Of a DNA stretch of 64,000 nt, positions 5,833 to 36,702 are shown one piece after another. The translations under genes were made by a program, and so were the position numbers. Below the pieces are notes generated by a model. That model worked only from the letters and a program-made list of their open reading frames with translations. It ran no database searches and had not been told where the DNA came from. This stretch comes from an uncultured Gemmatimonadota bacterium. GTDB taxonomy: Bacteria; Gemmatimonadota; Gemmatimonadetes; Palauibacterales; Palauibacteraceae. The stretch spans positions 1,704-65,703 of the forward strand of contig CAYXHP010000022.1 of NCBI GenBank assembly GCA_964465015.1, read 5' to 3'. The first letter of the stretch is position 1; each line of letters starts with the position of its first letter.

Positions 5833-5868
5833 GGCATGACCCGCGGGTCACCGACCACGAGAGGAGGT

Positions 5869-6645: not shown

Positions 6646-6695
6646 CCGTCAAAGCCACGCGCCGTCTCCCCGGAGGGAGGCGCACATCGCTCGCC

Positions 6696-8209: not shown

Positions 8210-8217
8210 CCGGGACG

Positions 8218-9061: not shown

Positions 9062-10267
9062 GTGACGCAGGATCGATCGGAGAGACGCGCCGGCCAGACG
9101 CGCAGGAGCCGGCGTCGTGCGCCGAAGCCGCTGACGTTGCTGGCCGTCGTGCTGGGCCTCTCCATTGGAGGGGAAGTCCTGCTGCGGCTCGAACCGCAGC
9201 TCTGTCCCCGTCAGGAGCAGTTGAAGATAGCCGAGACGACCGGGGGCTTCGACGACTTCGTCGACGATCCCTTGCTCGGAGCGCGTGCGCGCGGTGACGT
9301 GGACCAGGTGGAGCACACGCTCGACTACAGCTATCGCGTACGGCTCGATTCACTGGGATTCGCGAATGCCGAGCCGTGGCCCGATTCCGTGGAGGTGGCG
9401 GTCCTCGGCAACTCCCTCCTGTTCGGCCCGGGTGTGGGCCTGGAGGGCCAGTTCACGACTCTCATGGAGCGACAACTCGGTCCGGGGAGCGTTCTCAACC
9501 TGGGCCTGCCGGGCGGCTCGCCCATTCAGGAGCTACGGATCTACTCGAAGTACGCGGCGCCCCGACATCCACGAATCGTCATTGCCACCCTGTGGGTGGC
9601 CAGCGACGTCGACAATGCCGTCCAGTTCAGCCACTGGTTGTCGGAAGGCTCCCCGCCGGGCTTCACGGCCTACAGGATGGACTACCCCACCACCCATGGG
9701 AGCTTCACGTTTCTCCTTAGAGTGCGCGACTTGCTCAGCCGGTCCTATCTTCTCCGGGCCGCCTACTACTACGCCCGTTCGCTGGTCCGACCGGACAGCC
9801 TCACGGGCCGCGTGAGGTTCGAGAACGGTCAGGAGGTCTGGCTGTCCGTCCGGGAGGAGAGGCGGCTCGCCCGGGGGGCTCAGCGGCCGGGGCTGGACGT
9901 CGCGGACTTCATCGCACCTCTGCTCGAGCTACGTGCCCGGGCCGACTCGGCCGGTACCCGATTCGTGGTGGCCCTGCTGCCGAGCAAAGAGGAAGTCTAT
10001 GGCGCGTCGACGGATCCGGACGTCCTGAATACCGTGCGGGAGGTGCGAACGGCTCTCGACGCCGCCGACCTGCCCGTGGTGGACGTGTACCCGCCCTTCC
10101 GTTCCGAGGGCTTGGGCCGGCCGCTCTTCTACCGTCGAGACATCCACTTCAATCAGGACGGCAACGCCCTGGTTGCGCGAACCCTGCTCCGTTGGATCGC
10201 TCGACACGCTCCGTTGGAGACTCCCCGGGATACGAGGACCGCGCGGGAGGCGGGCGCGCCGCGATGA
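9062..10267 (+). CDS. Membrane-anchored SGNH/GDSL-hydrolase-like protein (paralog 1 of 4); a possible polysaccharide O-acyl esterase or transferase.
   Basis: GTG 9062 after a GGGGGG stretch. N-terminal TM (LTLLAVVLGLSIGG). Block I-like VAVLGNSLLFG and a DxxH block DIHFNQDGNALVA. Clearly paralogous to 22622..23911 and more distantly to 30998..32131(-) and 32340..33869(-). Confidence 0.7.
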   Translation: MTQDRSERRAGQTRRSRRRAPKPLTLLAVVLGLSIGGEVLLRLEPQLCPRQEQLKIAETTGGFDDFVDDPLLGARARGDVDQVEHTLDYSYRVRLDSLGFANAEPWPDSVEVAVLGNSLLFGPGVGLEGQFTTLMERQLGPGSVLNLGLPGGSPIQELRIYSKYAAPRHPRIVIATLWVASDVDNAVQFSHWLSEGSPPGFTAYRMDYPTTHGSFTFLLRVRDLLSRSYLLRAAYYYARSLVRPDSLTGRVRFENGQEVWLSVREERRLARGAQRPGLDVADFIAPLLELRARADSAGTRFVVALLPSKEEVYGASTDPDVLNTVREVRTALDAADLPVVDVYPPFRSEGLGRPLFYRRDIHFNQDGNALVARTLLRWIARHAPLETPRDTRTAREAGAPR

Positions 10268-10466
10268 TGGCGCTCCGGGCTCGGTCCGCCACAGGAGTGT
10301 TGCAGTCCGGCCACAACTGGAGAAGGGTACTCTCGCCGTCGCGGTCCCGTTCACACGGTGGGCGGCGCTCGGATGCGCGGGCGGGACGAGGGTATATCCC
10401 CCTGAACGCCAGTGAGTAAGAACCACGCTCGCCGCGCGTGCCGATCTTTACGCGGCCCCCCGTTCA

Positions 10467-10483
10467 ATGGTATGCTTTCTGCT
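10467..10483 (+). promoter_or_regulatory. Weak candidate sigma-54-type promoter (TGGTAT-N5-CTGC) in the AT-richer gap upstream of the GT2 gene.
   Basis: aTGGTATgctttCTGCt with GG-N10-GC spacing, inside the 380-bp lower-GC gap 10268..10649. Deviates from consensus at -24 (TAT instead of CAC). Confidence 0.25.
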
Positions 10484-10649
10484 CCGTTCAGCCGTCCGAG
10501 CCCGGCGGTAGGTCCGTTCGCCGGTACCGCGCACCGACCGTTCTCCGGGAGCCTTCGCATTGCCGCCAAGGACCAAACCCGCAGGTAACCGGGTCGACGT
10601 GCCAGGCGTGTCCCATCCTGCACAGAGCGTGGATGCTTTCCATGGTGGC

Positions 10650-11747: not shown

Positions 11748-11791
11748 GCAGCGGTCGAGGCAGGCGGGCGGGAGGGGCCGCCGGGTCGGAC

Positions 11792-14337: not shown

Positions 14338-14340
14338 TGG

Positions 14341-14799
14341 ATGTCGCTCTATGCCCTGGAAGTCTACGTCCACGTGGTGGCGGCCGTGGTGCTGGTCGGG
14401 TACTCCTCCTTCTGGCTGGTGATGTCCATGGCGCTGCGCCGGGAGGGCGGAGACCTGGACACCGAGGAGACGCTCGCGCTCATCGGCCGGTCGCGATGGC
14501 CGCCCTTCGTCGTCCCGGAGGGGTTGCGCGTTTCGATGGTGGTGCTCGGCTGGATCCTTATTCTGTTCATGGTCGCCAGCGGCGCGTTGCTCCTGCACGT
14601 TCGTGGAGTGGGACCGGCTCAACTGGGCTCCGGCGCCTTCTGGGCCGCCCGCTTCGGGCACGTCCTGGCCGTGAAGCTCGGGCTCCTGGGCCTGTTCGTG
14701 GTGGATCAGATCTGGCTCTCGGTTCGACCCTCTCCGCGGGGGACGCTTCTCGGAGCGGTGCTCGTCGCCCTGATCGCATGCGTATCCGTGCTCCTCTGA
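14341..14799 (+). CDS. Small integral membrane protein (~4 TM), paralog A; function unknown.
   Basis: ATG 14341 just after GGAGG. Hydrophobic profile. Paralogous to the next gene (HVLAVKLGLLGLFVVDQ versus HVLGVKLLLVLFMIGYQ). Confidence 0.65.
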   Translation: MSLYALEVYVHVVAAVVLVGYSSFWLVMSMALRREGGDLDTEETLALIGRSRWPPFVVPEGLRVSMVVLGWILILFMVASGALLLHVRGVGPAQLGSGAFWAARFGHVLAVKLGLLGLFVVDQIWLSVRPSPRGTLLGAVLVALIACVSVLL

Positions 14800-14810
14800 G
14801 AGTCTATAAC

Positions 14811-15236
14811 ATGACGATCTTTCGGCTCGTCCTCATGATTCACCTCCTGGCCGCCTTCATCTGGCTCGGCCACATGTTCTTCTGGTCGCTGTTCTCGGGC
14901 CCGGTGCTCAAGAAGATCGGACCTCCGCCCAAAGGCGAGCGGCTGCGGGAGTTGAGCCTGAGCATGGGAGGGCTGGGGTGGCCGGCTCTCGGTGTGCTCG
15001 TCGTCACCGGCAGCTATCTACTGTCCGTCCGCGGCATCCACCTCGCCGACCTGGTGAGGCCGGGCTTCTGGGCCCAACCCGGAACGCACGTGTTGGGCGT
15101 CAAGCTCCTGCTCGTGCTGTTCATGATCGGCTACCAGGCCGTGATCGGGCACCGCCGCGCTCCGCGGGCCATCTATCTGGACATGGGTGCGGCCCTCCTG
15201 GTGCTGGGCGCCTCCGTCCTGCTCGCGCGAGGTTGA
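14811..15236 (+). CDS. Small integral membrane protein (~4 TM), paralog B.
   Basis: ATG 14811. Internal start of ORF 14169..15236 chosen at the first TM. Tandem paralog of 14341..14799. Confidence 0.65.
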   Translation: MTIFRLVLMIHLLAAFIWLGHMFFWSLFSGPVLKKIGPPPKGERLRELSLSMGGLGWPALGVLVVTGSYLLSVRGIHLADLVRPGFWAQPGTHVLGVKLLLVLFMIGYQAVIGHRRAPRAIYLDMGAALLVLGASVLLARG

Positions 15237-15238
15237 GC

Positions 15239-16816
15239 GTGGTCGCCGCGGGTGCTCCCAGGGTCCTGGTGCTCGGACTCGATTTGGGCGATGGTCGCCT
15301 CCTGCGAGAGTGGGCCGCGCGCGGAGATCTTCCACATCTGGCGGGCTTGCTCGACGAGGGGTCGGCCGGGGAGCTCTCCACCACGGCAGAGCTGCTGCAT
15401 GTCTCGGCGTGGCCGACGCTGTATACGGGGGCGGATCCGGGGGTGCACGGCGTCTACTACACCTTCCAGGCCAGTCCCGGGCTGCAGGGCTACCGGCGAT
15501 TCGGGGCCGACCAGTACGGCGTTCCGACGGTGTGGAGTCTGCTGGGCCGGGGCGGAGTCCGGAGCACGGTCCTGGATGCTCCCTACACGCATCCCGAAGC
15601 GGCTCCGGGCGTCGCACAGATTCTCGACTGGGGGACCTGGGCACGTTACTGGAAGCCCGACTCGGTGCCGCCATCGATGCTTCGGAGGCTGCGTCGGAAG
15701 GTCGGGGACTACCCGCTGGGCCTGGAGGCACACGACCAGGGTCTCGCCGCCCTGGATCCCGATTTGCTCCAGCCACGGTTGCTCGAGAGCGTGGGTGCCA
15801 AGACGGACGCGATCCTGTGGCTCATGGACGCCGAGCCCTGGGACCTCTTCTTCACGGTCTACGGGGAGACGCACCTGGGCGGGCACTACCTGTGGCGACC
15901 GGCCCAGGACCGCGAGAAGGACGATCGTGATCTGCGGCTCCTCGGAGAGCTCTATCGGGCGCTGGACACGGGGATCGGCAGGATTCTCGCGGCCCTCCCC
16001 GAGGAGACGACGGTCTTCCTGGTCAGCGGTGACGCCGTCGCGCCCAACCACTCCGGCTGGCACCTGCTGCCGGACGTGCTGCGGCGTCTCGGCCACCTCG
16101 CGGAGCCCCAGGAGGGCTCGGCATCGGACGAGGACGCCGCTCCGCAGGAGGAAAAGGCCGGCCGCACGAGCCTGGATCCCGTGCGCATGCTTCGGGACCT
16201 CCTGCCGAAGGACTTTCGAAAGTCGCTGGCACGCCGTCTGCCCACCCGGCTCCGGGACACGCTCGCGCGTCGCGTCGACACGGCGAACATTGACTGGAGC
16301 CGGACGAGGGCCTTCACGCTTCCCACGGACCTCGAGGGCTGCATCCGGGTGAATCTGCGGGGGCGGGAGCCTCAGGGAGTGGTGGAGCCCGGCGAATACG
16401 ATGCCCTGTGCGACGAGATCACGGAGGAGCTCCGGGAGCTGGTGAATCCCGCGACCGGGCGGCCTGCGGTCGCCGACGTGGTGCGGTCGCGAGACCGGCT
16501 GGAGGGCCCCCGGTGCGACCGGCTACCGGACCTGGTGGTCCTGTGGTCGATGGAAGCCCCGATCGAGAGCCTGCGCTCTCCCCGCATCGGTGTCGTGTCC
16601 GCTCCGTCCCCCGACGCGAGGCCGGGAACGCACGCACCGCCCGGCTTCCTCCTCGTCCGGGGCCCCGGAGTGCCGCGAGGCGGCCTTCCAGAGGGGGCCC
16701 ACGTGCGGGATCTTGCACCCACGCTCCTGTCCCTGTACGGGGTGGAGAGGCCGGACTACATGAGAGGCTCGAGCCTTCTGGATCGCGCCCTCACGCGAGC
16801 GACAGAGGAGAGGTGA
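15239..16816 (+). CDS. Alkaline-phosphatase-superfamily protein (type I phosphodiesterase / nucleotide pyrophosphatase-like), paralog 1.
   Basis: GTG 15239 three nt after the upstream stop. N-terminal PRVLVLGLDLGDG ... HVSAWPTLYTGADPGVHG and HLGGHY are AlkP-core-like metal-site blocks. About 35% identical to 17892..19502. Confidence 0.7.
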   Translation: MVAAGAPRVLVLGLDLGDGRLLREWAARGDLPHLAGLLDEGSAGELSTTAELLHVSAWPTLYTGADPGVHGVYYTFQASPGLQGYRRFGADQYGVPTVWSLLGRGGVRSTVLDAPYTHPEAAPGVAQILDWGTWARYWKPDSVPPSMLRRLRRKVGDYPLGLEAHDQGLAALDPDLLQPRLLESVGAKTDAILWLMDAEPWDLFFTVYGETHLGGHYLWRPAQDREKDDRDLRLLGELYRALDTGIGRILAALPEETTVFLVSGDAVAPNHSGWHLLPDVLRRLGHLAEPQEGSASDEDAAPQEEKAGRTSLDPVRMLRDLLPKDFRKSLARRLPTRLRDTLARRVDTANIDWSRTRAFTLPTDLEGCIRVNLRGREPQGVVEPGEYDALCDEITEELRELVNPATGRPAVADVVRSRDRLEGPRCDRLPDLVVLWSMEAPIESLRSPRIGVVSAPSPDARPGTHAPPGFLLVRGPGVPRGGLPEGAHVRDLAPTLLSLYGVERPDYMRGSSLLDRALTRATEER

Positions 16817-16817
16817 C

Positions 16818-17888
16818 GTGGCCGTTCGAATCCTGCAGGTAGGTGCCGGAATCCGCGGAAAGCACTGGGCGGGCTTCGTCGACGACCACCCGGACTTCAC
16901 GTGCGTGGGCTTCGTGGACCCGGACGCGGCGGCCCTGGAGGCTTTGCGGGAGCGGTTCCCCGCCGAGGGGAAGGTCTTCCTGCGGGACCTCGATGAGGCG
17001 CTGGCTTCCACGGAGGCGGATGCCGCGCTCATCGTATCGCCGTCGGCCCTCCACGCGGACCACAGCTGCCAGGCCCTGGAGGCCGGACTCACGGTGATGG
17101 TGGAGAAGCCGCTGGCGACCTCGATCGAGGAGGCCGAGCGCGTGCTGGCCACGGCGCGCGGCACCGGCCGCACGGTCATGGTGGCCGAGAACTACCGCTA
17201 TTGGCCCTCCGAGCGCACCGTGCGCCAGCTGGTGGCCGAGGGCAGAATCGGCCGGATCGACTCCGCGACCCTCGTCGACCGCCGACACATGCCCAGCCAC
17301 ACGGAAGGCCCCTGGCTGGCCAGGATCGAGTATCCGCAGCTCCAGGAGATCGCGGTCCACCACTTCGACAGCCTGCGCGCGTTCTTCTCACGGGCGCCGT
17401 CCAGCCTGTCGGCGCATGTGTGGAATCCGGCGTGGAGCGATTACTCGCATGGGGCCGTGAGTCAGGTGCACCTGGATCTGGAGGGTGTGCGGGTCGAGTA
17501 CCTGGGCACGCTCAGCTCGCACCGGTTCAGCTTCGACCTCCGGGTGGAGGGCGAGGGAGGATCGATCTGGACGAACCGCAAGTACGTGGCGTGGCGTCCG
17601 GCCGGGAGTCGGTTCTTCCGGCCCGTCCGCCGGGTGGACGTGCCGCCCGGCGACGAGGCGTCCTACCCGAAGGGAGGGACCACCTCGCTCCTCAACGCGC
17701 TACGGGACGCGGTGGTGGACGGGACGGAGCCCGAGACGAGCGGTAGCGACAACATCTGGAACGTGGCCATGATCGAAGCGGCCAAGCGCTCGGACCGTGA
17801 GGGTCGCACGGTGTCCATCGAAGAAGTGTGGCCCGGGGCGCCCTCGCACGTCGAGGCCGGGCGGACGCCCGCCACGCCCGGGAGCTGA
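16818..17888 (+). CDS. Gfo/Idh/MocA family NAD(P)-dependent oxidoreductase.
   Basis: Rossmann N-terminus MAVRILQVGAGIRG ... EKPLA consensus. RBS GAGGAGAGG precedes GTG 16818. Confidence 0.8.
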   Translation: MAVRILQVGAGIRGKHWAGFVDDHPDFTCVGFVDPDAAALEALRERFPAEGKVFLRDLDEALASTEADAALIVSPSALHADHSCQALEAGLTVMVEKPLATSIEEAERVLATARGTGRTVMVAENYRYWPSERTVRQLVAEGRIGRIDSATLVDRRHMPSHTEGPWLARIEYPQLQEIAVHHFDSLRAFFSRAPSSLSAHVWNPAWSDYSHGAVSQVHLDLEGVRVEYLGTLSSHRFSFDLRVEGEGGSIWTNRKYVAWRPAGSRFFRPVRRVDVPPGDEASYPKGGTTSLLNALRDAVVDGTEPETSGSDNIWNVAMIEAAKRSDREGRTVSIEEVWPGAPSHVEAGRTPATPGS

Positions 17889-17891
17889 GCT

Positions 17892-19502
17892 GTGCCACGT
17901 GTCCTCCTCCTCGGCCTCGATTCGGCCGATGCAGAGCTCGTCGAGCGCTGGTGCGACGCGGGGGATCTTCCGCATCTGTCCGCCCTGCGTCGTGACGGCG
18001 TGTGGGGCCGACTGGGTACGACCGCCGACACCATGCACGTGTCCGCCTGGCCGACCCTCTACACCGGAGCCTCGCCGGGTCAGCACGGCATGTACCACGC
18101 CTACCAGGTCGAGTCCCACGTGCAGGGGGTCCACCGGACGCGCCCCGAGGAGTGTGCCCTCCCGCCATTCTGGAAGTTCCTCGATGACGCGGGTCGGCGG
18201 TGCGTCGTCTTCGACGCCTTCATGGACTACCGCCTGCCGGACTTCGGCGGACGCCAGATCCTGGAGTATGGCACCTGGACCTGGTTCGGAAAACCGTCGT
18301 CCACACCGCGGCGCTTGCGCAAGGAGCTCATCCGGAGCGTCGGTCCCTACCCTGCCCCCGAGCACCTGCACGTCCTGAGCGTTCCGGATCCCCGCGCTTT
18401 CCGAGACCAGCTCGTGGCAGGTGCGGAAGCCAAGGCCAGGGCGACGCGGTGGCTGCTCGGTCGGTCGGACTGGGACATGGCGTTCGTGACCTTCGGTGAG
18501 CCGCACGGCGGGGGACACTACCTATGGCACACGGGTGATTCGGACCACCCGGCCTCGCACGACTACGACATCTCCCCGGCGCCCGAGGCCCTGAGGGACG
18601 TCTACCGGGCGGTGGACGCGGCCATCGGGTCCATCCTGGAGTCCGTGGACGATTCCGTGACGGTCGCCGTGTTCTCGGGTGACGGCATGGGTCCCAATTA
18701 CTCGGCCTGTCATCTCATGCCGGAGTTTCTGCGGCGGAAGGGCTGGCTGGTGGACTCGGGGGGCTCGAACCCGGACGGGGAGCCCTCCGTGGCGGCGAAG
18801 AAGGGCCTCCTGTCCCGCGTGCGGGAGATGATTCCCATGGAGTTCCGGCAGATGGTTTCTCGCTGCATTCCGCGGAGTCTCCACTACAGCATGAGCATGA
18901 AGTGGGTGAACGATGGCATCGACTGGGATCGTTCACGGGTCTTCTGTATCCCGAACGCCAACGAAGGCTACTTTCGACTCAATCTCCGCGCTCGCGAGCC
19001 ACGGGGTATCGTCGAGCAAGGGGCCGAGATGGCCGGGATTCTCGAGGAGCTGTCGGATGAGCTGGGGTCCCTGGTGAATCCGGACAGGGGAGCACGCGCG
19101 GTGGACGCCGTGGTGCGGGCGGACGATCGCTTCCCGGGCAGGGCGCGAGACCGCCTGCCGGACGTGATCGCCTGCTGGGATCCGAGCGCTCGCATTCTGG
19201 ACCGGATCGAGGCCGCGCATTGGGGTCTGGTCGAGGGCCAGGCCGGGTACAGGACCGCCCCCTATTACACGGGCAACCACCGGCCCAATGCCTTCGTCAT
19301 CGCCCGAGGTCCCGGTATCACGCCGGGCGCGCGGCTCCGGGGCCACCACATCCGGGACCTGGCACCGACGATCCTGGCCCTGCTCGGTGTGGATCCACCC
19401 GCGCACTTCGAAGGTCGTGCGGTCGCGGAGATTTGTGGAACGGGCAGCCCCGAAGTCGGTGCCCTGAGCCCGAACGCGAGCGGTCATCCATGTGCGGAGT
19501 AG
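17892..19502 (+). CDS. Alkaline-phosphatase-superfamily protein (type I phosphodiesterase-like), paralog 2.
   Basis: GTG 17892. MPRVLLLGLDSADAE ... HVSAWPTLYTGASPGQHG ... HGGGHY. Paralog of 15239..16816. Confidence 0.7.
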   Translation: MPRVLLLGLDSADAELVERWCDAGDLPHLSALRRDGVWGRLGTTADTMHVSAWPTLYTGASPGQHGMYHAYQVESHVQGVHRTRPEECALPPFWKFLDDAGRRCVVFDAFMDYRLPDFGGRQILEYGTWTWFGKPSSTPRRLRKELIRSVGPYPAPEHLHVLSVPDPRAFRDQLVAGAEAKARATRWLLGRSDWDMAFVTFGEPHGGGHYLWHTGDSDHPASHDYDISPAPEALRDVYRAVDAAIGSILESVDDSVTVAVFSGDGMGPNYSACHLMPEFLRRKGWLVDSGGSNPDGEPSVAAKKGLLSRVREMIPMEFRQMVSRCIPRSLHYSMSMKWVNDGIDWDRSRVFCIPNANEGYFRLNLRAREPRGIVEQGAEMAGILEELSDELGSLVNPDRGARAVDAVVRADDRFPGRARDRLPDVIACWDPSARILDRIEAAHWGLVEGQAGYRTAPYYTGNHRPNAFVIARGPGITPGARLRGHHIRDLAPTILALLGVDPPAHFEGRAVAEICGTGSPEVGALSPNASGHPCAE

Positions 19503-21421
19503 CCGGACTCGCCTGCCTCCGCTCGGACTGCTCCCGGGCCCACGAAGTGGTCGTGGGCGCCCTGTGTGACCGGCAGGCGCATCGAGGGCCCGACGACCAG
19601 GGCGTCGTCGTTCTCGACGACGTGTGCCTGGGATCCCGACGCCTGAGCATCCTCGACGTCTCGGCGGCCGGCCACATGCCGATGTCGGACCCGACCGGCC
19701 GCTGGTGGGTGGTCCACAACGGGGAGATCTACAACTTCCGGGATATCCGGCGCGAGTTGGAAGGCGAGGGCCACGTCTTCGTTTCCGAATCGGATACGGA
19801 GGTGATCCTCCACGCCTTCATGGAATGGGGCACGGACGCCTTCCAGCGCTTCGTCGGGATGTTCGCCACCGCCCTGTACGACCGGAACACCCGGTCCCTG
19901 ACGCTGGTCCGGGACCGATACGGCATCAAGCCGCTCTACTACGTCGAGGTCGGCGGTCATCTCCTGTTCTCGTCGGAGCTGAAGGCCCTGCTGGACCGAA
20001 GTGCCCCGGCGAGGGTGGATCGCCAGAAGCTCACCGAGTGGCTCCTGTACCGGAACGTGGATGCGCTCACGCCCGAGACGCTCGTGGAGGGCGTTCGCTC
20101 CGTCATGCCCGGACAGATCCTCCAGGTCCGGGGCGGGGAGATCATCGAGAGCACCTTCTACCAGCCACTCTCGTTCGTGGACGAGACCGTCTATCGCGAG
20201 CAGAGGACGGCGGGCTCCGCCGAGCTGGTGGAGCGGGTCGAAGGGACCCTCCGGGAAGCGGTCCGCTCACGACTCGTGAGCGATGTCCCGGTGGGCACGC
20301 TGTGCAGTGGCGGCCTCGACTCGAGCCTGGTCACGGCGCTGGCCGCCGAGTTCACGACGCAGATCACGGCGTTCCACGTCTCCGTCGCCGAGGCCCCCAA
20401 CCTCGATGAGCGGAGGTTCGCCGAGCGGCTCACCCGGAATCTGGGCATCGAGCTGGTCTCCCACGACCTCACCGCCGCCTCCTTCCGGGCCACGCTGCCC
20501 CGGGCGGTCTACCATTCGGACCTGCCGCTGACACACCCCAACTCGGTCGCCTATCTACAGATCAGTGAGGTGGCGAGAGCCCACGGAGTGATCGTCCTGC
20601 AGTCCGGGGAAGGGGCCGACGAGCTGTTCGGGGGCTACAGCTGGAGCTACCGCAGGCTCCGGACGCTGCAACGGCTGCGAGGATTGCTGCGCCTGGTGCC
20701 GGGTTCCATGGTGGACCGATTCATCCTGTTGGCCTACTCCATGGCCGGACTCCCGGCCACCACGCACAAGTTCCGTGAGGTCCTGCCTGCGACGGTGGCG
20801 GCGATCGACCGGTTCGCCCGGGAGGACTGGGCGGCCCGGTGCGAGGAAGCCTACGGGTTCGTGGACGACGCCATGGATCGTCGCCTGCTGGGACGGATGC
20901 TCGCCGACCTGAGCGACTTCCTGGCTCCCCTCCTCCGTCGCCTGGACCGGATGACGATGGCGGCCTCGGTGGAGTCCCGCGTGCCCTTCCTGGATCACCG
21001 GCTGGTGCACCAGGCGATCAACCTCCCGCTGTCCTACCGGATCGGGGCCCGGGCCGACAAGTGGCTCCTGAAGAGGGTGGCGGACACGCACCTCCCGCGC
21101 AGCAACGTGTGGCGGAAGAAGATGGGATTCCCGCTCCCGCTCGGCGACTTCATCGGTCCACTCGCCATCCTGGAGGCTTTCACGGATGGGTTCTGCGAGC
21201 GCATCCTCGGCTACGCGCGCAGCGCCCTCGAGGACCGGGTGACGCGTTGGGCAGAAGATCCCTTCGCCTTCTTCGGACTGCTGACCCTGGAGATGTGGGG
21301 CCGGATGTTCGTGATGGGCGAGGAGCTCGGAGAGGTGGAGTTCCGCTTCGGTGTCGAGGCCGGGGCCGGCGACCGAGTCGAGGTCGCGGATACCCGTAGT
21401 CGCGCGGTCGGCACGGGATGA
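19490..21421 (+). CDS. Asparagine synthase (glutamine-hydrolysing) family amidotransferase, of the type associated with exosortase systems.
   Basis: Starts MCGVAG with the catalytic Cys2. Class-II glutamine amidotransferase domain. Synthetase-domain SGGLDSS PP-loop. Overlaps the upstream gene by 13 nt. Confidence 0.85.
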   Translation: MCGVAGLACLRSDCSRAHEVVVGALCDRQAHRGPDDQGVVVLDDVCLGSRRLSILDVSAAGHMPMSDPTGRWWVVHNGEIYNFRDIRRELEGEGHVFVSESDTEVILHAFMEWGTDAFQRFVGMFATALYDRNTRSLTLVRDRYGIKPLYYVEVGGHLLFSSELKALLDRSAPARVDRQKLTEWLLYRNVDALTPETLVEGVRSVMPGQILQVRGGEIIESTFYQPLSFVDETVYREQRTAGSAELVERVEGTLREAVRSRLVSDVPVGTLCSGGLDSSLVTALAAEFTTQITAFHVSVAEAPNLDERRFAERLTRNLGIELVSHDLTAASFRATLPRAVYHSDLPLTHPNSVAYLQISEVARAHGVIVLQSGEGADELFGGYSWSYRRLRTLQRLRGLLRLVPGSMVDRFILLAYSMAGLPATTHKFREVLPATVAAIDRFAREDWAARCEEAYGFVDDAMDRRLLGRMLADLSDFLAPLLRRLDRMTMAASVESRVPFLDHRLVHQAINLPLSYRIGARADKWLLKRVADTHLPRSNVWRKKMGFPLPLGDFIGPLAILEAFTDGFCERILGYARSALEDRVTRWAEDPFAFFGLLTLEMWGRMFVMGEELGEVEFRFGVEAGAGDRVEVADTRSRAVGTG

Positions 21422-21497
21422 GACCGTCTCGGTCGCCGCTCGTGGCCGGAGGGCGTCCGGCCCGCGTGCTCACCGCCCCTCGCCGGAGAGATCCCTG

Positions 21498-23911: not shown

Positions 23912-24005
23912 GGTCGCGGCTCATCTCAACACACGCTATGATGGTATACCCGTGCGAACCGCGCCTGTCGACGGTTCCACCTGTGCAGGAGCGTCGAGGT
24001 CGAGC

Positions 24006-24665
24006 ATGGATAGACGGTTGCGGACGCTCCTCCTCCTGGCGGCATCCGAGAAGTCCTATCTCTCGCGTATGGTGAGGCGCCTCAAACCTCGCGTCATCCC
24101 GGACGCGGACAAGCGACCGGAAGCCCAGGGTGATGGTCGCTATGCCGACCTCGAGAGCGGAGAAGAGGCTCGCTACGCCTTCGTCGCGGGGTACCTGAGC
24201 CAGGTGGGCGGCGATGGTTCTCCCTCGGTGCTCGACGTGGGTTGCGGTCCCGGTATCCTGCAGCCGTACCTGTCGCGGCACGGGTATGCACGCTACCTCG
24301 GGATAGACTTCGCTCCCAACAACATCGCCGTGGCCAGCCGCCGAGCCGACGAGAACACGAGCTTCGAACTGGCCCGGGCCACGGAGTATGAGCCGCTCGA
24401 CACCTTCGATCTCATCGTTTTCAACGAGATGCTGTACTTCCTCGACGATCCCGTCGGCTGCATTCGATCGTACATGCGGCATCTCGAGCCGGGAGGCCTG
24501 GTCGTCACCTCCAATACGATCGATTTCGCGACGCTGGGTCTCGTTCGCGCGCTTCGCACGAGTCTTCCCATCCTGGACGAGACCCTGGTCGTCAACGCGG
24601 CTGGATTCGGCTGGGTGATCCAGGCTGTCGGCGAGCGAAAGGGATCAGTCCTGGAGAGTCGCTGA
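24006..24665 (+). CDS. Class I SAM-dependent methyltransferase.
   Basis: Motif I VLDVGCGPG. Start taken at ATG 24006 (MDRRLRT). Upstream GTG 23952 lies in an AT-richer promoter-like stretch. The 3' end overlaps the convergent flippase gene by 21 nt. Confidence 0.7.
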   Translation: MDRRLRTLLLLAASEKSYLSRMVRRLKPRVIPDADKRPEAQGDGRYADLESGEEARYAFVAGYLSQVGGDGSPSVLDVGCGPGILQPYLSRHGYARYLGIDFAPNNIAVASRRADENTSFELARATEYEPLDTFDLIVFNEMLYFLDDPVGCIRSYMRHLEPGGLVVTSNTIDFATLGLVRALRTSLPILDETLVVNAAGFGWVIQAVGERKGSVLESR

Positions 24666-26243
24666 GCCGCCGGATACGGAGGCAGCCTCCTGCACCGCCC
24701 GGGCGCTCGGAATCACGAGGTCTTGAGCGTCGATTTCGCCCAGCAACCACAGCACTCCGAGATAGGCTGCGGCCAGCCCTGTGAGCTTCACGAGGACGAG
24801 CAGTCCCGACGTGTGCACGAAGATCGCCGGAACGGCCACCACGAGTGATGCGATCGCGACCCTGATCGATGTGCCGAGGGGAACGGGTGGCCCGAACTCG
24901 CGCCACGTCAGCACCGTGATTGTGACTCCGACGCCGAACATTCCGAGCATCAGCGAGAGAGCTGCGCCCATCGGGCCCATCGACGGAATCAGAAGGTAGT
25001 TCGCCAGGCCTACCACCGGCATGAAGGCGAGGAGGACGCCGGCCGTCGCACGCTGCCGGCCGGCAGCCATGAGACCGTAGGCCAGTGAGTCCAGGAGCGC
25101 GAACCATGCATAGGCGATCAGTTGCACGGTCAGGAAGATCCCTCCACTCGCGTAGTCGCTCGAGTAGACGAGGCTCATGAGGGAGGATGCGCTTCCCCCC
25201 AGGATGACCACCGCGGGAGCGCCCAGGATCAGGGAGAAGCGGCCCGCCTCGCGCACGTGCTCGTGTGCCCCTCTGCGGTTTCCCTCGGAGAGAGCCCAGG
25301 CGACAGAGGACAGCACGACGCCTGACTGGACGATGGGGATCACCGTCAGCATCTGGGAGATCTTGAGGGCTGCGACGTAGCGGCCGATGACGGCTGCGTC
25401 CCCGTGCCAGAGACTGCCCAGCGACCAGAGGTCGAGGCTCGTGAGGACGTTCAGACACACCACGAACATGCTGATCTGGCCTCCCAGGGAGACCACCTCG
25501 CGCATCAAGGACCACACCGGTCGAAAACCCTCCGGTGGGTATCGCACGACGAGGTAGAGGAGCGCGGCACAGGATGCCAGCACGTTGACCACGAGCGCGC
25601 GCCCGACCGACATCCCGAGGTAGACCAGCGCGATGGCTCCGAGGCACTTCGTCGCTCCCAGCAGCACCTGACTCGCCGCCAGGGGTCCGAATCGTCGACG
25701 TCCGTTGAGCGCCCCGGTGTATCCGGCGCAGGCAGCCGAGAAGGGAACATCCAGGAGGGCCAGGCGAAACAGGCGAGCGCCATCCGCGATGCCGAAGAGA
25801 TGGCCGAGCCGAGGCGCCAGGTACCACCCGATCGCAAAGACCAGGAGCGACGTCACGAGCAGCACGGCGCGCGCCGATTGCTCCACCTCCCTCGTCTGGG
25901 ACTGGTGATCGGGGATCAGCTTCCCCAGGGCTCCGGGTACGCCGATGAAGCTCAACATCTCCAGCCAGACGAGCACGGACAGCAGGAGGCCGTACACTCC
26001 GAAGGCCGCGGGCGCGAGGGTGCGGGCCAGTATCACGGAGCCCACATAGCTGAGCACCAGGAAGATGGCCCGCCCGACCAGCAGCTGTCGGGTTCCGCGC
26101 TTCTGGGTCAGCTGCGCCTCGTCTGGTGTGGACGAGCCGTCCGCCGCCCCGGTCATGCCGGGACTTTCGTCGGCCACGAGGTCTTTCACCTTCAGCTCCT
26201 GTTCATTCCGGACCGCATCGGCATGAACGCACCCGGCGCGCAT
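24645..26243 (-). CDS. Polysaccharide biosynthesis flippase (Wzx-like, MOP/oligosaccharidyl-lipid flippase family).
   Basis: About 12-14 TM helices. Conserved flippase-like layout. Start could be the internal ATG at 26156 (MTGAADG ...); the first 29 codons have somewhat lower GC3. Confidence 0.75.
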   Translation of the reverse strand: MRAGCVHADAVRNEQELKVKDLVADESPGMTGAADGSSTPDEAQLTQKRGTRQLLVGRAIFLVLSYVGSVILARTLAPAAFGVYGLLLSVLVWLEMLSFIGVPGALGKLIPDHQSQTREVEQSARAVLLVTSLLVFAIGWYLAPRLGHLFGIADGARLFRLALLDVPFSAACAGYTGALNGRRRFGPLAASQVLLGATKCLGAIALVYLGMSVGRALVVNVLASCAALLYLVVRYPPEGFRPVWSLMREVVSLGGQISMFVVCLNVLTSLDLWSLGSLWHGDAAVIGRYVAALKISQMLTVIPIVQSGVVLSSVAWALSEGNRRGAHEHVREAGRFSLILGAPAVVILGGSASSLMSLVYSSDYASGGIFLTVQLIAYAWFALLDSLAYGLMAAGRQRATAGVLLAFMPVVGLANYLLIPSMGPMGAALSLMLGMFGVGVTITVLTWREFGPPVPLGTSIRVAIASLVVAVPAIFVHTSGLLVLVKLTGLAAAYLGVLWLLGEIDAQDLVIPSARAVQEAASVSGGSATLQD

Positions 26244-26363
26244 CCAACGTGGGTGATGGCTCGGGGGTGGCTCCGCGTTTCGTGGTGCGGCGGCCCGCGC
26301 TCTGCCGCGCCCGGAAGGGAGCTAAGTGGGAGAAGGGAGTGACCGCTTCATGAACTCCCGGGG

Positions 26364-27893: not shown

Positions 27894-28009
27894 TTCGGGC
27901 TCCGACGCGCCGGCTTGCGAGGCACGGGCTCGGGGCTCCCGTTCGACCTCCGGCAGCTCGCGATCGGACGGGTCCGGAGAGATCTCGATCCGTGGCAAGC
28001 GAGTGTTCC

Positions 28010-29620: not shown

Positions 29621-30918
29621 GGGCGCGCGGCTCCTTCCGCGCCGCCCGCATGCCCGCCGCGTCGTGCGGAGCCAGCGGTCGACGGATGGGCCACTCCGAG
29701 CTCCGGACTTCGGCAGATGACGCCGAAGCGATCGACTATGGGACGGGCGGTCCTCCGCTGGGTGGCGAAGTCGACGCCGAAGAGTCCGAATCGCGGCGCA
29801 GTGCCGAGGGTCCACTCGTAGTTGTCCATCAGGGACCAGTAAAAATAGCCGCGTACGTCGACCCCCTCCTCCAGGGCTCGGGCCACGGCCTGTACATGGT
29901 CCACCAGGAACCGGGTTCTCAGCTCCTCGTCCGTCGTTGCGACACCGTTTTCGGTGATCAGAATCGGAACACCGTAGCGGGAGAATCGGTCGAGCGTGGT
30001 GAACAGCCCGTCCGGGTAGATCTCCCAGCCCATATCGCTGCGGGCTCCGCGGTCCGCGTGGTGGTCGGCCGTGCACTCGGTGCCCGCGAACGGTATCACC
30101 CCACGCCCCCGTCCGCTGACGATCGTCCGGGTGTAGTAGTTGATTCCCAGGAAGTCGAAGGACGGCTCGGGGCCCGCTCCCAGCAGACGGAAGAAGGCTC
30201 GGTTGAGGACCGCATCCCTGGTCCACGCCGCCAGCCTGTCCCGCGGGCTCGACGGATCGCATGGCTGGATCAGGGGAGCGCTGTGAGCGAAGCCGACCTT
30301 CGCGCTCGGGTCGGCGGAGCGCACCTTCGAACGGGCCGCCCGATGGGCGCGGGCCAGATGGATCGCCGCCCGAACGGCCCCTCCCCACGCCCTGCCGCGG
30401 CAGGGCGGCCAGTCGCCGACGACGTAGCCGTGTTTGACGTATACCGTAGGCTCGTTGATGGTGACCCAGTACCGGACCTTCCCGGCGAGCCGATCGGCCA
30501 GTCGGTCCACGAAACGCGCGAACAGGCTCACCGTCTCGCCTCGAGCCCACCCTCCTCTCTCCGCCACCCACGAGGGGAGGGTGAAGTGGAAGAGCGTCGG
30601 AACCGGCTCGAGCCCCCGGGCGAGAAGCGAATCGATCACGGCCTCGTAGTGATCGATCGCGTGACGATTCCACGACCCTTCGACGGGCTCAATTCGGCTC
30701 CACTCGATGGAGAAGCGATGAGCATTGTGGCCCGCTGCCAGGGCGAGATCGAAGTCGGAGTCGAAGAGCTCGAAGTGTCGGCACGCCGCACCCGACTTCT
30801 CGGGGAGCCTCCCCGCCTGCTCGTAGGCCCACCAATCGTTCCACCGGTTGGCCCCTTCGACCTGGTGGCTGGACGTGGCTGCCCCCCAGAGGAAGTCCTG
30901 GGGAACGGCGATCCGCAT
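29617..30918 (-). CDS. GH1-family beta-glucosidase.
   Basis: Starts MRIAVPQDFLWGAATSSHQVEGA. NEP acid/base TINEPTV and nucleophile ITENG motifs. Start at Met106 of ORF 29617..31233. Confidence 0.85.
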   Translation of the reverse strand: MRIAVPQDFLWGAATSSHQVEGANRWNDWWAYEQAGRLPEKSGAACRHFELFDSDFDLALAAGHNAHRFSIEWSRIEPVEGSWNRHAIDHYEAVIDSLLARGLEPVPTLFHFTLPSWVAERGGWARGETVSLFARFVDRLADRLAGKVRYWVTINEPTVYVKHGYVVGDWPPCRGRAWGGAVRAAIHLARAHRAARSKVRSADPSAKVGFAHSAPLIQPCDPSSPRDRLAAWTRDAVLNRAFFRLLGAGPEPSFDFLGINYYTRTIVSGRGRGVIPFAGTECTADHHADRGARSDMGWEIYPDGLFTTLDRFSRYGVPILITENGVATTDEELRTRFLVDHVQAVARALEEGVDVRGYFYWSLMDNYEWTLGTAPRFGLFGVDFATQRRTARPIVDRFGVICRSPELGVAHPSTAGSARRGGHAGGAEGAARP

Positions 30919-30997
30919 CGCCGTGCTCCCGAGCGCTGAGTTCAGGGCAGCCGGACAGTCGGCGGCGGGGGAAGGCGAGGTGACGGGCATTCGCACG

Positions 30998-32131
30998 TCA
31001 ATGGGAAAGTCCGCCGAGGCCATATTGCCCGGCGTCACGTTCGATCCGCGCCAGGACGGCGGCGGCAATGACACGGTATCCGGCCGCATCGGGATGACCA
31101 TCGACCTGGAAGAAGAGTCGCTTCTCCTGTCGGGCCTGCTCCTGCATGGGACCCGTGAGATCCAGATAGGGAATGCCCCGGCTGCGTAGTGCCTCGACCA
31201 GCGACGGGAGCAGCGGAGGGACCGTGTCTCCACGGAGCGGGAGGTACACGTCCTCCTTGGTCGGAAACACCAGGACGAGAAACGCCGTGCCGTGACTGGC
31301 TGCGATGGCCTGCGTCTTCTCGATGGATTCCATGACGCTCTGGAAGACGGGCTGATCCGGCTTGGCCAGCCCCACCTGATTCTCCAGGAACGAAGGCGCG
31401 AAGATGAGGCGGGTGTGGTCGGGAAACTCCATGGGTGGCGTGCTTCGGAACCGTCTCCTCAGGGTGCGGAAGGTCTCCGCCACGAACCAGTACACGTACG
31501 ATCGCTCGAGAATGGACTGCAGGAGACTGGGTGATCTTCCGTGACGGAACTTCCAGGTCGCGTAGCGTCCCGGACGGCCGGCGCGGAGCCAGCGATCGAA
31601 CTCCTGTTCGTCCTGCAGGTCGTTGCCCGGGAACAGTCCGAAGAGAAGGAGCTTGGGCTGAAAGGCCGTCCCGTACCGTTCGTAGACTCTCAAGTACTGC
31701 TTGGGCGCGTAGCCGGGCAGGCTCAGGTTGACGAGGCGGATGCCGGGGAGAGCTTCCTCGACGAGCGTCGACCACGTGGAATCGTAGTCCACGCCATAGC
31801 CGAAGCCCTCGGAGTCTCCGATCACGACGATCCCGGCCGAATCCGGCAAGGGGGATGGATTACGGAATCCGAGGGAGTCGGTCGCGTAGTCGAAACGTAC
31901 GTCGCCAGCGACTACCCGGCCGTGGTGATTGGGCGGATACAGGTAGCCAACATACGGGTCCGCTCTCTCGACATCGTCGTTGTCCTTCATCCAGTGGATC
32001 TTCACCCGTGCGGAGGCGGGCAGGTTGTTCGGGAACTCCCGAAGGAAGGCTTCCGTGCAGGCGAGTATGACGAGGACGCTGGCCAGAAGCAGTCCGAGAT
32101 TGACGAGGATGCGTTTCGCGGTCGAGGGCAT
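30998..32131 (-). CDS. Membrane-anchored SGNH-hydrolase-like protein (paralog 3 of 4).
   Basis: Start at internal ATG (MPSTAKRILVNLGLLLASVLVIL, a signal anchor). GDS block VVIGDSEGFGYG. DGHP block QVDGHPDAAGYRVIA. Confidence 0.7.
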   Translation of the reverse strand: MPSTAKRILVNLGLLLASVLVILACTEAFLREFPNNLPASARVKIHWMKDNDDVERADPYVGYLYPPNHHGRVVAGDVRFDYATDSLGFRNPSPLPDSAGIVVIGDSEGFGYGVDYDSTWSTLVEEALPGIRLVNLSLPGYAPKQYLRVYERYGTAFQPKLLLFGLFPGNDLQDEQEFDRWLRAGRPGRYATWKFRHGRSPSLLQSILERSYVYWFVAETFRTLRRRFRSTPPMEFPDHTRLIFAPSFLENQVGLAKPDQPVFQSVMESIEKTQAIAASHGTAFLVLVFPTKEDVYLPLRGDTVPPLLPSLVEALRSRGIPYLDLTGPMQEQARQEKRLFFQVDGHPDAAGYRVIAAAVLARIERDAGQYGLGGLSH

Positions 32132-32339
32132 CTTCCATCTCTGTCCGGGGCCGTGGCGAAGGCCTGAGGCTTCCCCCTGAAGACGGTTGCTCATACGACT
32201 GGGTCCTGCAGGTTGAATGCCGGACCAAAGTGAGGGATGAAGGCGGACGCGGCCATGCCGCGCGAGGAGTCCGGGCCGCGGCATCGGCAGCGTGCTTCTG
32301 AACTCGGGAGGTGCGGGGACGACGGACCTCGGTGCTCCA

Positions 32340-33869
32340 TCAAGCCTTGGGTCGAGGCGAGAGCGGTCGCGTGTCGTCGGCGTGCGACACTCGGTGTGTC
32401 GCCGCATCCCCACGTGCCGACGGGGTCGACGAGACGTGGGGTGCAGTCCGGCCTCCCGGCTCGAGCGGCACGGCGCGCGCGGGTCTCCAGAGACCATCGC
32501 GAGCGATGGCCTGGACCGAGAGGCTGGCGGCCAGGCGCTGTCCCGCATTGCTCCAGTGATCGTTACCGCCTCGGAGATAGAGCGCGGCCGGATCGTGCGA
32601 CCGGAAGGCCGGGAACAGGTTCAGGGTCGGGATGGAGTCCTGCCGGCCTATGGCTTCGACCACTGCCGACAGGTTGGACCTCTGGTAGGCCGGGTAGAGG
32701 GACGAGTCGACCCGGTAGACGTAGCCCGGCACCTCGTCCTCGGCCGTCGGGATGATCAGCAGGAGCATCGGGATCCCGTGGCTCCGAACCACGCTGTCCA
32801 TTCGGGTGATGACCCGATCCATGAGGGTCACCTTGTACCGGGCCGATGGTCCGTCCGGCGCCGCGCTGACGTCGGCATCGTAGCCGTCGGCGAGCAGGTT
32901 CGTGACCACATCGTCGTGTCCGAGGACGTAGTCCCGGTACTCGGCCTCGCGATCTCGCATCCACTCCCGGGTGGTCGTGGCGGAGGCCGGGTTGCCCTCG
33001 ACGGGAACCTCGTCGCCCTCCGGCACGAACCGGCTCGATTCGAGGCGGTCCACGGTGCGCTCGAACAGCTTCAGGACCAGCGGCCCGTGTCGCGCCATCA
33101 GGAACTTGCGGCGAACGGACCCGGCCAGCCTGTAGTGGTTCCGAACCAGCCGGCCCCCGGAGTCCAGTCGGAAGAGCTTGTTCCGGAGGAGGTCGCCGAA
33201 GTCGTTGCCGGTGTAGATGCTGACGATGACGAGGTCGGGCTTGAGCCGCGTCAGATCGCGCTCCATTCGGATGCACTCTTGATCGGGACCGTAGCCGGTC
33301 ACCCCAGCGTTCACGACCTCGACTGGCGTGCGGAAGTAGGCCCCGAGCATGCGCTGGAGCTGGCTCGTGTAGGTGTCGGCCTCAGCGGAGTACTCCGCGG
33401 CGATGAACGAGTCGCCGAACACCACGACCCGTCGTGAGCTGTCTGCCGACCCGCGCAGCTCGGGTCCGCGGAAGCCTTGCCGGTCGATGTGCACGCGGAT
33501 CGTCTGGCCGCCGTTGATCGGCAACCGATGATAGTCCCGGCTGGCCGCCGGTATGTACTCGAACAGGTCGTCCGACCGCAGCCGGAAGAGCGTGGAGAAG
33601 TCGTCGGGGACCGTGAGGCGGAGTCCGATTTCGGCGATCACCAGACCGATCAGGGACGAAGCGGTGAGCAGCAGCAGCCGCGTTCTCCACTTGCTGGACG
33701 CCAGGCCCGCGGCCACGACCACGGCGCCGAAGGCTGCCACCAGGATCTGAGACCATCCGGGACCGGATCGCTGAGGGCTCGATGGGCAGACGGTGACAGC
33801 GACCACGAGGACCAGCATCCCGAAGATGCCGAGGGCTATCCTGGTCGCCGGCCTCCGCTCCTGTTCCAT
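32340..33869 (-). CDS. Membrane-anchored SGNH-hydrolase-like protein (paralog 4 of 4) with a 3-TM N-terminus.
   Basis: Start at internal ATG (MEQERRPATRIALGIFGMLVLVV), with GGAGG 6 nt upstream on the minus strand. GDS block VVVFGDSFIAAEY. GGNDHWSNAG (DxxH). Confidence 0.65.
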   Translation of the reverse strand: MEQERRPATRIALGIFGMLVLVVAVTVCPSSPQRSGPGWSQILVAAFGAVVVAAGLASSKWRTRLLLLTASSLIGLVIAEIGLRLTVPDDFSTLFRLRSDDLFEYIPAASRDYHRLPINGGQTIRVHIDRQGFRGPELRGSADSSRRVVVFGDSFIAAEYSAEADTYTSQLQRMLGAYFRTPVEVVNAGVTGYGPDQECIRMERDLTRLKPDLVIVSIYTGNDFGDLLRNKLFRLDSGGRLVRNHYRLAGSVRRKFLMARHGPLVLKLFERTVDRLESSRFVPEGDEVPVEGNPASATTTREWMRDREAEYRDYVLGHDDVVTNLLADGYDADVSAAPDGPSARYKVTLMDRVITRMDSVVRSHGIPMLLLIIPTAEDEVPGYVYRVDSSLYPAYQRSNLSAVVEAIGRQDSIPTLNLFPAFRSHDPAALYLRGGNDHWSNAGQRLAASLSVQAIARDGLWRPARAVPLEPGGRTAPHVSSTPSARGDAATHRVSHADDTRPLSPRPKA

Positions 33870-34040: not shown

Positions 34041-34340
34041 GCTGTGGCCGGCCCGACTCGGCTGTGCCGGTCGCAGCGGATGGCGGTGTGCGGCTCCGGC
34101 GTCTGTTGCAATGTGCCTACAAGATCGGCAGACCGCCGCGGCGAGCCCCGAACGCAGGACTTTGAAAAGCTATTCATCCCAACTAGATACGCTCATCACC
34201 TGTTGGACGGAGGAATGGCGTACTTATCTTGCACAGCGTGGCTGCCCGAGAAGAACGCGCGGCCGGCCGCCGTGCGAAATCACGCTGATCCGTTCGGCGC
34301 ACGTGTGGCCCCGGCGAGGGTTCAGGAAGGACGTTCATAC

Positions 34341-36685: not shown

Positions 36686-36702
36686 GACGGAGGAGCGTAG
36701 AC

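Follow-up and report, generated by a model that had tools for sequence, protein, structure and literature searches.

Why would a single exopolysaccharide (EPS) locus carry four membrane-anchored proteins of the SGNH-hydrolase type, and what could they do to the polymer? The question is raised by a 64-kb stretch of DNA from an uncultured Gemmatimonadota bacterium (assembly GCA_964465015.1, contig CAYXHP010000022.1, positions 1,704 to 65,703; hereafter the window), which is a large XrtA/PEP-CTERM-type exosortase EPS locus. Four paralogous genes, named P1 to P4 in order of their coordinates, lie within it. We found that they belong to an SGNH family of distinctive architecture that is widespread and has no linked acyl-donor protein.

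P1 (9062..10267, 401 aa) and P2 (22622..23911, 429 aa) are encoded on the plus strand, P3 (30998..32131, 377 aa) and P4 (32340..33869, 509 aa) on the minus strand. All four open reading frames (ORFs) were confirmed with the ends given in the initial annotation of this DNA. Independent public gene calls on the same contig returned identical products for P1, P2 and P4, and they extend P3 by 21 codons at its upstream end, to 398 aa. The start of P2 overlaps by 4 nt the stop of the GT4 gene upstream. When the family hidden Markov model (HMM) was run on every six-frame ORF of the window, exactly P1-P4 were retrieved and nothing else.

The proposed paralogy, including the collinearity of the first two copies, was confirmed by BLASTP: P1 and P2 share 37% identity over 375 aa (E ~1e-66), P1/P2 and P3 28-30% over ~360 aa (E ~1e-25), and P3 and P4 25% across 410 columns (E 5e-4). 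The initial annotation had made the paralogy depend on the C-terminal halves being alignable. This holds in that MAFFT aligns all four proteins end to end, but the signal in P4 is slight: against a family profile built without P4, the protein scores 69 bits (E 1.5e-17), of which the N-terminal half reaches 52 bits and the C-terminal half only 12.9 bits. P4 adjoins P3 on the same strand, has P3 as its best match within the window and found no close relative in a collection of 5.8 billion proteins, which fits a lineage-specific, fast-diverging duplicate.

To describe the fold, AlphaFold2 models were made for P1, from a 62-sequence alignment, and for P4, P2 and P3 being covered by the alignment. 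The P1 model (pLDDT 91.8, pTM 0.88) comprises a transmembrane (TM) helix, a four-stranded beta extension and the SGNH core, with ~115 helical residues inserted as a cap between block III and block V. The P4 model, with an enlarged helical insert, has a pLDDT of 73 overall and core blocks of 10 residues above 90. For both models, the top 50 Foldseek matches in the PDB were all SGNH/GDSL-type enzymes, with CgnD (8a2n) first, followed by TesA/TAP, acetyl-xylan esterases and other GDSL esterases; AlgJ and AlgX were absent from these top 50. With the Pfam family ALGX (PF16822, gathering score 26.5), P1, P2 and P3 score 42.8, 48.6 and 35.9 bits, and P4 18.3 bits, the matches of P1-P3 being confined to their C-terminal halves (model positions 4-146 of 268). 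With Lipase_GDSL_2 (PF13472, gathering score 32.9), P4 scores 47.9 bits, and P1, P2 and P3 28.6, 30.1 and 32.5 bits. The SGNH fold suggested for these proteins, of the alpha/beta/alpha flavodoxin-like kind, is therefore supported by ALGX in P1-P3, by Lipase_GDSL_2 in P4 and by all the Foldseek matches. DUF1574, another family proposed for this search, gave no match at E<=1 for any of the four, nor did DltD, and matches to the Leptospira LA_2486/LA_2490 GDSL families of NCBIfam were weak, partial and far under the cut-offs.

Profile searches against the PDB divided the proteins into two parts. Blocks I-II matched TesA-type hydrolases (~5e-6), whereas the best match of the last ~110 residues was AlgJ (4o8v residues 30-144, 45 bits, E 6e-11), in a region that takes in the P-x-K...VY strand and the D-x-H motif. 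We also looked for a circular permutation at the sequence level; the N-terminal half (blocks I-III) retrieved from the PDB only TesA-type hydrolases and not the C-terminal half of AlgJ, AlgX or PatB1.

According to hydropathy and to the helices of the AlphaFold2 models, there is one TM segment in each of P1-P3 (a signal-anchor helix at residues ~23-43 in P1) and three at the N-terminus of P4. The shared N-terminal anchor of the initial annotation is thus a single helix in P1-P3 but not in P4. The N-termini of P1-P3 are positively charged ahead of their hydrophobic helix, and the most basic loop of P4 (SSKWRTR) lies between TM2 and TM3, which would put its domain outside. By the positive-inside rule, all four SGNH domains are predicted to face the periplasm, which would make P1-P4 type-II membrane-anchored proteins. 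Where the TM helix ends on the periplasmic side, we noticed an E-x-x-L-R-x-x-P motif (P1 residues 38-45) that is nearly invariant across lineages and may mark a conserved membrane-surface contact, either to a partner protein or to a lipid-linked substrate.

The block I motifs (GDS/GNS) and the C-terminal motifs quoted in the initial annotation are all present in the proteins, but the latter, described there as DxxH, are in fact D-x-H as in AlgJ/AlgX. In P1 (plus strand), block I is GNS at 9407-9415 (residues 116-118, with Ser118 as predicted nucleophile), block II NLGLPGG at 9497-9517 (Gly151), block III ASDVDN at 9599-9616 (Ser181 instead of Asn) and block V DIHF at 10139-10150 (residues 360-363; Asp360, His362), preceded by PSKEE at 9980-9994. 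P2 (plus strand) has GSS at 22979-22987 (residues 120-122; Ser122), NLGSPGA at 23066-23086, ASDIDN at 23168-23185 (Ser184 at the oxyanion Asn position), PSKEA at 23555-23569 and DIHY at 23714-23725 (residues 365-368; Asp365, His367). On the minus strand, P3 has GDS within 31805-31819 (residues 105-107; Ser107), NLSLPGY at 31709-31729, GNDLQD at 31610-31627 (Asn170), PTKED at 31250-31264 and DGHP at 31091-31102 (residues 344-347; Asp344, His346). P4, on the same strand, has GDS within 33402-33416 (residues 152-154; Ser154), NAGVTGY at 33291-33311 (Gly192), GNDFGD at 33192-33209 (Asn222), PTAED at 32736-32750 and NDHW at 32553-32564 (residues 436-439), that is Asn436-Asp437-His438 with no Asp at position i-2.

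None of the 62 family sequences varies at the Ser, the His or the block II Gly, and at least 90% of them have the Asp of DxH; Gly151 of P1 and its equivalents align with the block II Gly of TesA. Around these constant residues each lineage has its own signature. The P1 clade (13 close relatives) combines GNS, ASDVDN and DIHF in blocks I, III and V, and the P2 clade GSS, ASDIDN and DIHY/F. A neighbouring clade, whose relatives in our genome scan are metagenome-assembled genomes (MAGs) of Alphaproteobacteria, has GDS (GNS in two sequences), AWDIDN and DIHL. The P3 clade (~30 sequences) has GDS, GND and DGHP, and P4 has GDS, GND and NDHW. The oxyanion position of block III is thereby Asn in P3 and P4, Ser in P1 and P2 and Trp in the neighbouring clade, while the spacing of block V is D-x-H in P1-P3 and N-D-H in P4, compared to the canonical DxxH. 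P3 is canonical in every block save this spacing.

The residue preceding the nucleophile Ser in SGNH enzymes is non-catalytic. GNS, which had been read as a possible sign of inactivation in P1, recurs in all 13 of its close relatives and twice in the neighbouring clade. It is thus a signature that the lineage conserves at a non-catalytic position and does not speak for decay. Judged from the aligned sequences, the real deviations of the active sites are the Ser replacing the block III Asn in P1 and P2, and the N-D-H of P4. At the position of Asn436 in P4, all other aligned sequences but one have Asp, and compared with relatives such as P0032 (NDPHW), P4 resembles a one-residue deletion. Ser154, Gly192, Asn222 and His438 are intact in P4, Asp437 is adjacent to His438, and the GC content at third codon positions (GC3, 0.82) is of the coding type. 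It is thus in P4, with Asn at the Asp position, that the triad looks doubtful. The retention of lineage-specific motifs in close relatives indicates purifying selection on each copy, and the lineage-specific variants of the active site suggest that the specificities of P1, P2 and P3 are probably non-redundant. The idea of sub-functionalised paralogs, already put forward for this locus, agrees with these subfamily-specific variants.

The AlgX family is defined by a circular permutation (block order H-S-G-N), a Tyr in block III, GTSYS in block I and DXH in block V (PMC9487903). In P1-P4, the order is the canonical S-G-N-H, the Ser at residue ~110-150 preceding the DxH at ~345-440, and the motifs are GND or ASD in place of the block III Tyr, and GDS, GNS or GSS in place of GTSYS. 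Only block V agrees, with DIH, DIH and DGH in P1, P2 and P3 aligning to the DTH of AlgJ. Sharing only DXH and having the canonical order, P1-P4 are not members of the AlgX family in the strict sense. The AlgX/AlgJ-like role proposed by the initial annotation therefore fails in its defining sense, the likeness to AlgJ being limited to the C-terminal strand and the DxH. P1-P4 are best described as an uncharacterised SGNH family of canonical order with an AlgJ-like strand-plus-DxH block V.

This family is not restricted to the window. An exhaustive profile search found 948 representative clusters at E<1e-30. For gene context, species-representative genomes were scanned with the P1/P2 clade as query, so that the sample is biased toward this clade, and 30 loci, all from MAGs, were viewed over +/-10 kb. 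They come from Gemmatimonadota, Alpha- and Gammaproteobacteria (Steroidobacteraceae), Acidobacteriota, Methylomirabilia and one contig labelled Actinomycetes. A module recurring in Gemmatimonadota reads GT4, GFO, Phosphodiest, GFO, Phosphodiest, Wzx, SGNH, AsnB, SGNH; it is closely matched in three acidobacteriotal loci (L025, L028 and L031), and shorter subsets are found in two proteobacterial ones (L015 and L020). Phosphodiest/GFO, AsnB, Wzx and SGNH genes are combined in L003-L006, L014, L025, L028, L030 and L031. In many loci across phyla, P1/P2-type genes are adjacent to AsnB or overlap it. AsnB, Wzx, Phosphodiest and GFO genes are neighbours of family genes in Gemmatimonadota, Acidobacteriota and Alpha-/Gammaproteobacteria. 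At least two family copies are present within 10 kb in 12/30 loci, and one Gemmatimonadales MAG has P1-, P2- and P3-type genes together in a syntenic locus. L002 and L034 share with the window the order P3-type SGNH, GH1, GMC, Wzx.

In a neighbor-joining tree, P1, P2 and P3 fall into separate clades, and P2 is sister to the neighbouring clade of alphaproteobacterial type, so that the duplications appear old. Given the age of the P1-P3 lineages and the presence of multi-copy loci also in Acidobacteriota and Proteobacteria, a family expansion inside one EPS cluster, as first suggested, can no longer be maintained. An apparent SGNH-GH1 fusion (P0048, 778 aa, on a 1.9-Mb MAG contig) was considered as Rosetta-stone evidence and rejected: it has a 95-residue, low-complexity, Arg/Gly/Ser-rich linker that looks out of frame and it misses the N-terminus of GH1, which points most likely to a frameshift in a long-read MAG and not to a fusion. 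Between the P2-type and the P1-type genes of a Gemmatimonadales MAG (L001/L017, 7241-9844, plus strand), we noticed a gene whose 868-aa product contains 13 hydrophobic segments, is without Pfam match and has a 64%-identical homologue in another MAG (L006, 1639-4317, minus strand); it is absent from the window. Literature searches for exosortase/PEP-CTERM together with SGNH/GDSL, and for exosortase EPS of Gemmatimonadota, returned nothing relevant.

An analogy with AlgJ/AlgX implies an MBOAT partner. Known MBOAT/SGNH pairs such as AlgIJFX, PatAB, WssHIFG and DltBD are encoded together. More generally, the known extracytoplasmic SGNH acyltransferases take the acyl group from an acyl-Tyr of a co-encoded MBOAT or AT3 partner. 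We searched for polytopic ORFs (at least 300 aa with at least 6 hydrophobic segments) in the 64 kb of the window and within +/-10 kb in the related neighbourhoods. In the window, no MBOAT or AT3 protein is encoded. Six or more hydrophobic segments occur there only in the exosortase, Wzx and the Wzy_C protein, of which only the last two are polytopic proteins of the size of an MBOAT or AT3. The 30 related loci contain 41 polytopic ORFs, among which Pfam identified no MBOAT and a single AT3-SGNH fusion, the other matches being flippases, PMT_2 proteins and transporters. Together, these data suggest that P1-P4 probably do not receive their acyl groups from an MBOAT or AT3 protein.

What, then, might the four proteins do? 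We favour, with roughly even confidence, a role of P1-P4 as serine esterases or transesterases that face the periplasm and edit ester-type substituents with lineage-specific specificities. The Wzx flippase would first carry the lipid-linked repeat unit across the membrane. P1-P4 would then form an acyl-Ser intermediate, and ester-type substituents would be removed, or repositioned by transesterification, on the repeat unit or the nascent polymer near the membrane surface. P3 would provide the fully canonical esterase-type site, P1 and P2 would operate with Ser for the oxyanion Asn of block III, and P4 would be a lineage-specific divergent copy beside P3 with an altered catalytic-acid position. 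The retained block II Gly and the GND of P3 and P4 are hydrolase-like features. On the other side, several points weigh against esterase chemistry on this polymer. P1 and P2 are without the block III Asn, which would fit transferase chemistry, since AlgX-family and plant TBL acyltransferases are likewise without it, and the C-terminal half is most similar to AlgJ, a protein of an acetyltransferase pathway. Some family members lie outside polysaccharide loci (L033, for instance), and we know of no esterified substituent of this polymer. Finally, the genome could carry an MBOAT or AT3 gene outside the stretches covered (64 kb here, +/-10 kb in the related loci), and our filter could miss a fragmented gene.

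The same features bear on the other explanations. As the main alternative, P1-P4 could be O-acyltransferases of the AlgJ/AlgX/PatB kind, for which an unlinked MBOAT or AT3 protein would load an acyl-Tyr and each SGNH paralog would acylate a different position of the polymer. This would fit the ALGX scores above gathering in P1-P3, the alignment of the C-terminal half with AlgJ (4o8v, E 6e-11) over PxK...VY and DxH, and the N-terminal membrane anchor resembling those of AlgJ, PatB and DltD; the block III Asn is missing in P1 and P2 as it is in AlgX-family enzymes, and loci with several family copies recall the AlgJ+AlgX pair. We nevertheless hold it to be unlikely, given that MBOAT and AT3 are absent from the 64 kb and only one AT3-SGNH fusion turned up in 30 neighbourhoods, that the block order is unpermuted and the block II Gly retained, unlike in PatB/OatA, and that the N-terminal half fits TesA-type hydrolases and not AlgJ, AlgX or PatB1. 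The lack of a linked MBOAT or AT3 gene would fit transacylases independent of any donor protein, which would draw acyl groups from a donor accessible in the periplasm, such as a membrane phospholipid or the acylated, flipped repeat unit, and pass them on, P1/P2-type and P3-type enzymes possibly acting in sequence. GCAT-type SGNH enzymes use membrane phospholipid as acyl donor; in our family, the membrane-proximal domain follows E-x-x-L-R-x-x-P at the end of the TM helix, and two subfamilies with differing oxyanion holes co-occur across phyla. However, this proposal is purely inferential, block II is hydrolase-like and we know of no precedent for it in bacterial EPS systems, so that we regard it as quite unlikely. 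A more elaborate scheme appears similarly improbable to us: P1/P2-type enzymes, with their Ser/Trp oxyanion hole, would capture acyl groups from a membrane-accessible donor such as a lipid or an acylated lipid-linked repeat unit, P3-type enzymes would transfer or remove them on the exosortase-associated polysaccharide without MBOAT or AT3, and the family would be an unpermuted precursor of the AlgJ/AlgX lineage.

Loss of activity is another way to account for the deviating sites, some copies being dead scaffolds or pseudoenzymes. It is plausible for P4 only, with its Asn436 in NDHW, its C-terminal half barely recognisable at 12.9 bits, its ALGX score below gathering and its lack of close relatives in 5.8 billion proteins; the block III Asn missing from P1 and P2 points the same way. 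As P4 keeps the other residues of its site (Ser154, Gly192, Asn222 and His438, with Asp437 adjacent), a GC3 of 0.82 and a confidently predicted SGNH core, and as P1 has Ser118, Gly151, Asp360 and His362 with a GNS kept in its 13 close relatives, we give this explanation a very low probability. By analogy with CgnD, the substrates could also be proteins or peptides, such as PEP-CTERM proteins that the exosortase handles. In Foldseek, CgnD ranks first for both models, and it shares with them the N-terminal beta-hairpin region, and the locus encodes an exosortase and a weak PEP-CTERM candidate. Yet the TM-scores to CgnD are modest (0.44/0.57), and CgnD, which is soluble and works in a cytoplasmic pathway, carries DxxH and GGS. 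Moreover, the neighbours of the family genes are sugar-modifying enzymes and Wzx, not the exosortase, which many family loci do not have within 10 kb. Peptide processing thus seems to us extremely improbable, and editing of ester-type substituents by periplasmic esterases or transesterases is the reading that we retain.

The polysaccharide-cluster setting assigned by the initial annotation is well supported by the other genes of the window. The exosortase (EpsH, 6609..7505, plus strand) scores 152 bits with TIGR02602 (cut-off 105), the XrtA-system deacetylase 335 bits with TIGR03006 (cut-off 276) and the FemAB-like protein 274 bits with TIGR03019 (cut-off 260), while the XrtA-specific exosortase model and the amidotransferase model TIGR03108 score under their cut-offs. 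Export and assembly are represented by a Poly_export/SLBB exporter of the Wza type, Wzx and a Wzy_C-domain protein. The window also encodes two AsnB-type amidotransferases, many glycosyltransferases and a methyltransferase. For the AsnB-type glutamine amidotransferase at 19220..21421 (plus strand), the public gene call of 643 aa places the start later than that of the ORF. Two paralogous Phosphodiest (PF01663) proteins, neither of which has an NCBIfam match, flank a GFO/IDH/MocA oxidoreductase at 14978-19502 (plus strand).

P4 and P3 head a minus-strand run in the order P4-P3-GH1-GMC-PIG-L-Wzx, which includes a GMC oxidoreductase and a PIG-L-like protein and whose last gene is the Wzx-type flippase (24645..26243, minus strand). 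The GH1-like glycosidase (29677..30918, minus strand), directly downstream of P3, has TINEP and ITENG motifs and no signal peptide. This intact gene is masked by an 887-aa ORF in another frame, of which the true GMC product starts at ~29620. Divergently from P4/P3, on the plus strand, 34044..36861 encodes an O-carbamoyltransferase (Carbam_trans_N/C) followed by two small membrane proteins, SxtJ (36305-36685) and a DUF5989/SxtK-like protein (36700-36861), which we take to be the accessory trio known from saxitoxin clusters. The trio also stands beside the P3-type gene in L034, and a carbamoyltransferase neighbours family genes in L006, L011 and L020. A functional tie between the SGNH proteins and the carbamoyltransferase, was considered for their repeated adjacency and for the parallel to CgnD/CgnI; as they are adjacent in only ~5 of ~33 loci, it is merely noted here.

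Some further ORFs of the window, all on the plus strand, attracted our attention. A domain-less ORF of 392 aa (5467-6645) has a weak C-terminal PEP-CTERM motif (E 0.003, under the gathering score); lying immediately upstream of the exosortase gene and overlapping it, it is a candidate exosortase substrate. An ORF of 152 aa without Pfam match (14341-14799) has counterparts of 48-55% identity at the same GT4/Phosphodiest position in several Gemmatimonadota loci, and in the public gene call it is directly followed by a further ORF of 141 aa. In the 469-aa ORF at 7558-8967, a low-molecular-weight phosphotyrosine phosphatase domain covers only residues 269-359, and the ORF probably far exceeds the true gene in length.

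Current models account for extracytoplasmic polymer acylation in bacteria by MBOAT/SGNH pairs or AT3-SGNH fusions. This rule would be put to the test by a membrane-anchored SGNH family that is widespread, has no linked donor and occurs, among soil Gemmatimonadota, Acidobacteriota and Proteobacteria, in polysaccharide loci of the exosortase type that depend on Wzx. The family may consist of dedicated periplasmic de-acylases tuning the properties of the polymer, or it may reveal an undescribed donor route. Annotations of P1-P4-like proteins as "AlgX acetyltransferase" are over-interpretations.

How the family compares with known SGNH systems can now be specified. With the classical SGNH/GDSL esterases (TesA/TAP, acetyl-xylan esterases), the main Foldseek matches after CgnD (target TM-score ~0.7), P1-P4 share the block order, the block I Ser, the N-x-x-x-x-G of block II and, in P3 and P4, GND. 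Unlike these esterases, they are twice as long, with a TM anchor, a beta-hairpin extension and the ~115-residue insert between blocks III and V, they have DxH and not DxxH, and the oxyanion Asn is replaced by Ser in P1 and P2 and by Trp in the neighbouring clade. CgnD (8a2n), by which the leader peptide is cleaved off the core of crocagin (PMC10070186), matches both models best in structure (E ~1e-8) and has in common with them the SGNH core and, by sequence, the N-terminal beta-hairpin region before block I (DPxLG...D..GF). It differs in being a soluble amide hydrolase from a pathway for RiPPs (peptides made on the ribosome and then modified), with GGS and D-R-V-H (DxxH), and in the low TM-scores given above. 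PatB, OatA-C and DltD likewise are membrane-tethered extracytoplasmic SGNH domains acting on envelope polymers, but they are linked or fused to a donor protein, which P1-P4 are not, and P1-P4 have no Pfam DltD match. In PatB and OatA, block II has a type I turn with Ser or Asn in place of the Gly, a replacement that disfavours hydrolysis (PMC12148441), whereas this Gly is invariant in our family, so that its block II is not of the transferase type. AlgJ and AlgX, which act in alginate O-acetylation in Pseudomonas, have an SGNH-like fold, Ser-His-Asp chemistry and a D-x-H block V, and occur as more than one paralog in an EPS locus; AlgJ in addition has the P-x-K...VY strand before block V and an N-terminal membrane anchor. 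They part from P1-P4 in that neither an AlgI-type MBOAT nor AlgF is encoded near the latter, whose N-terminal half resembles TesA-type hydrolases. With its canonical order and AlgJ-like block V, the family stands between the SGNH esterases of canonical order and the permuted enzymes AlgJ/AlgX, and should be useful for tracing the origin of the permutation.

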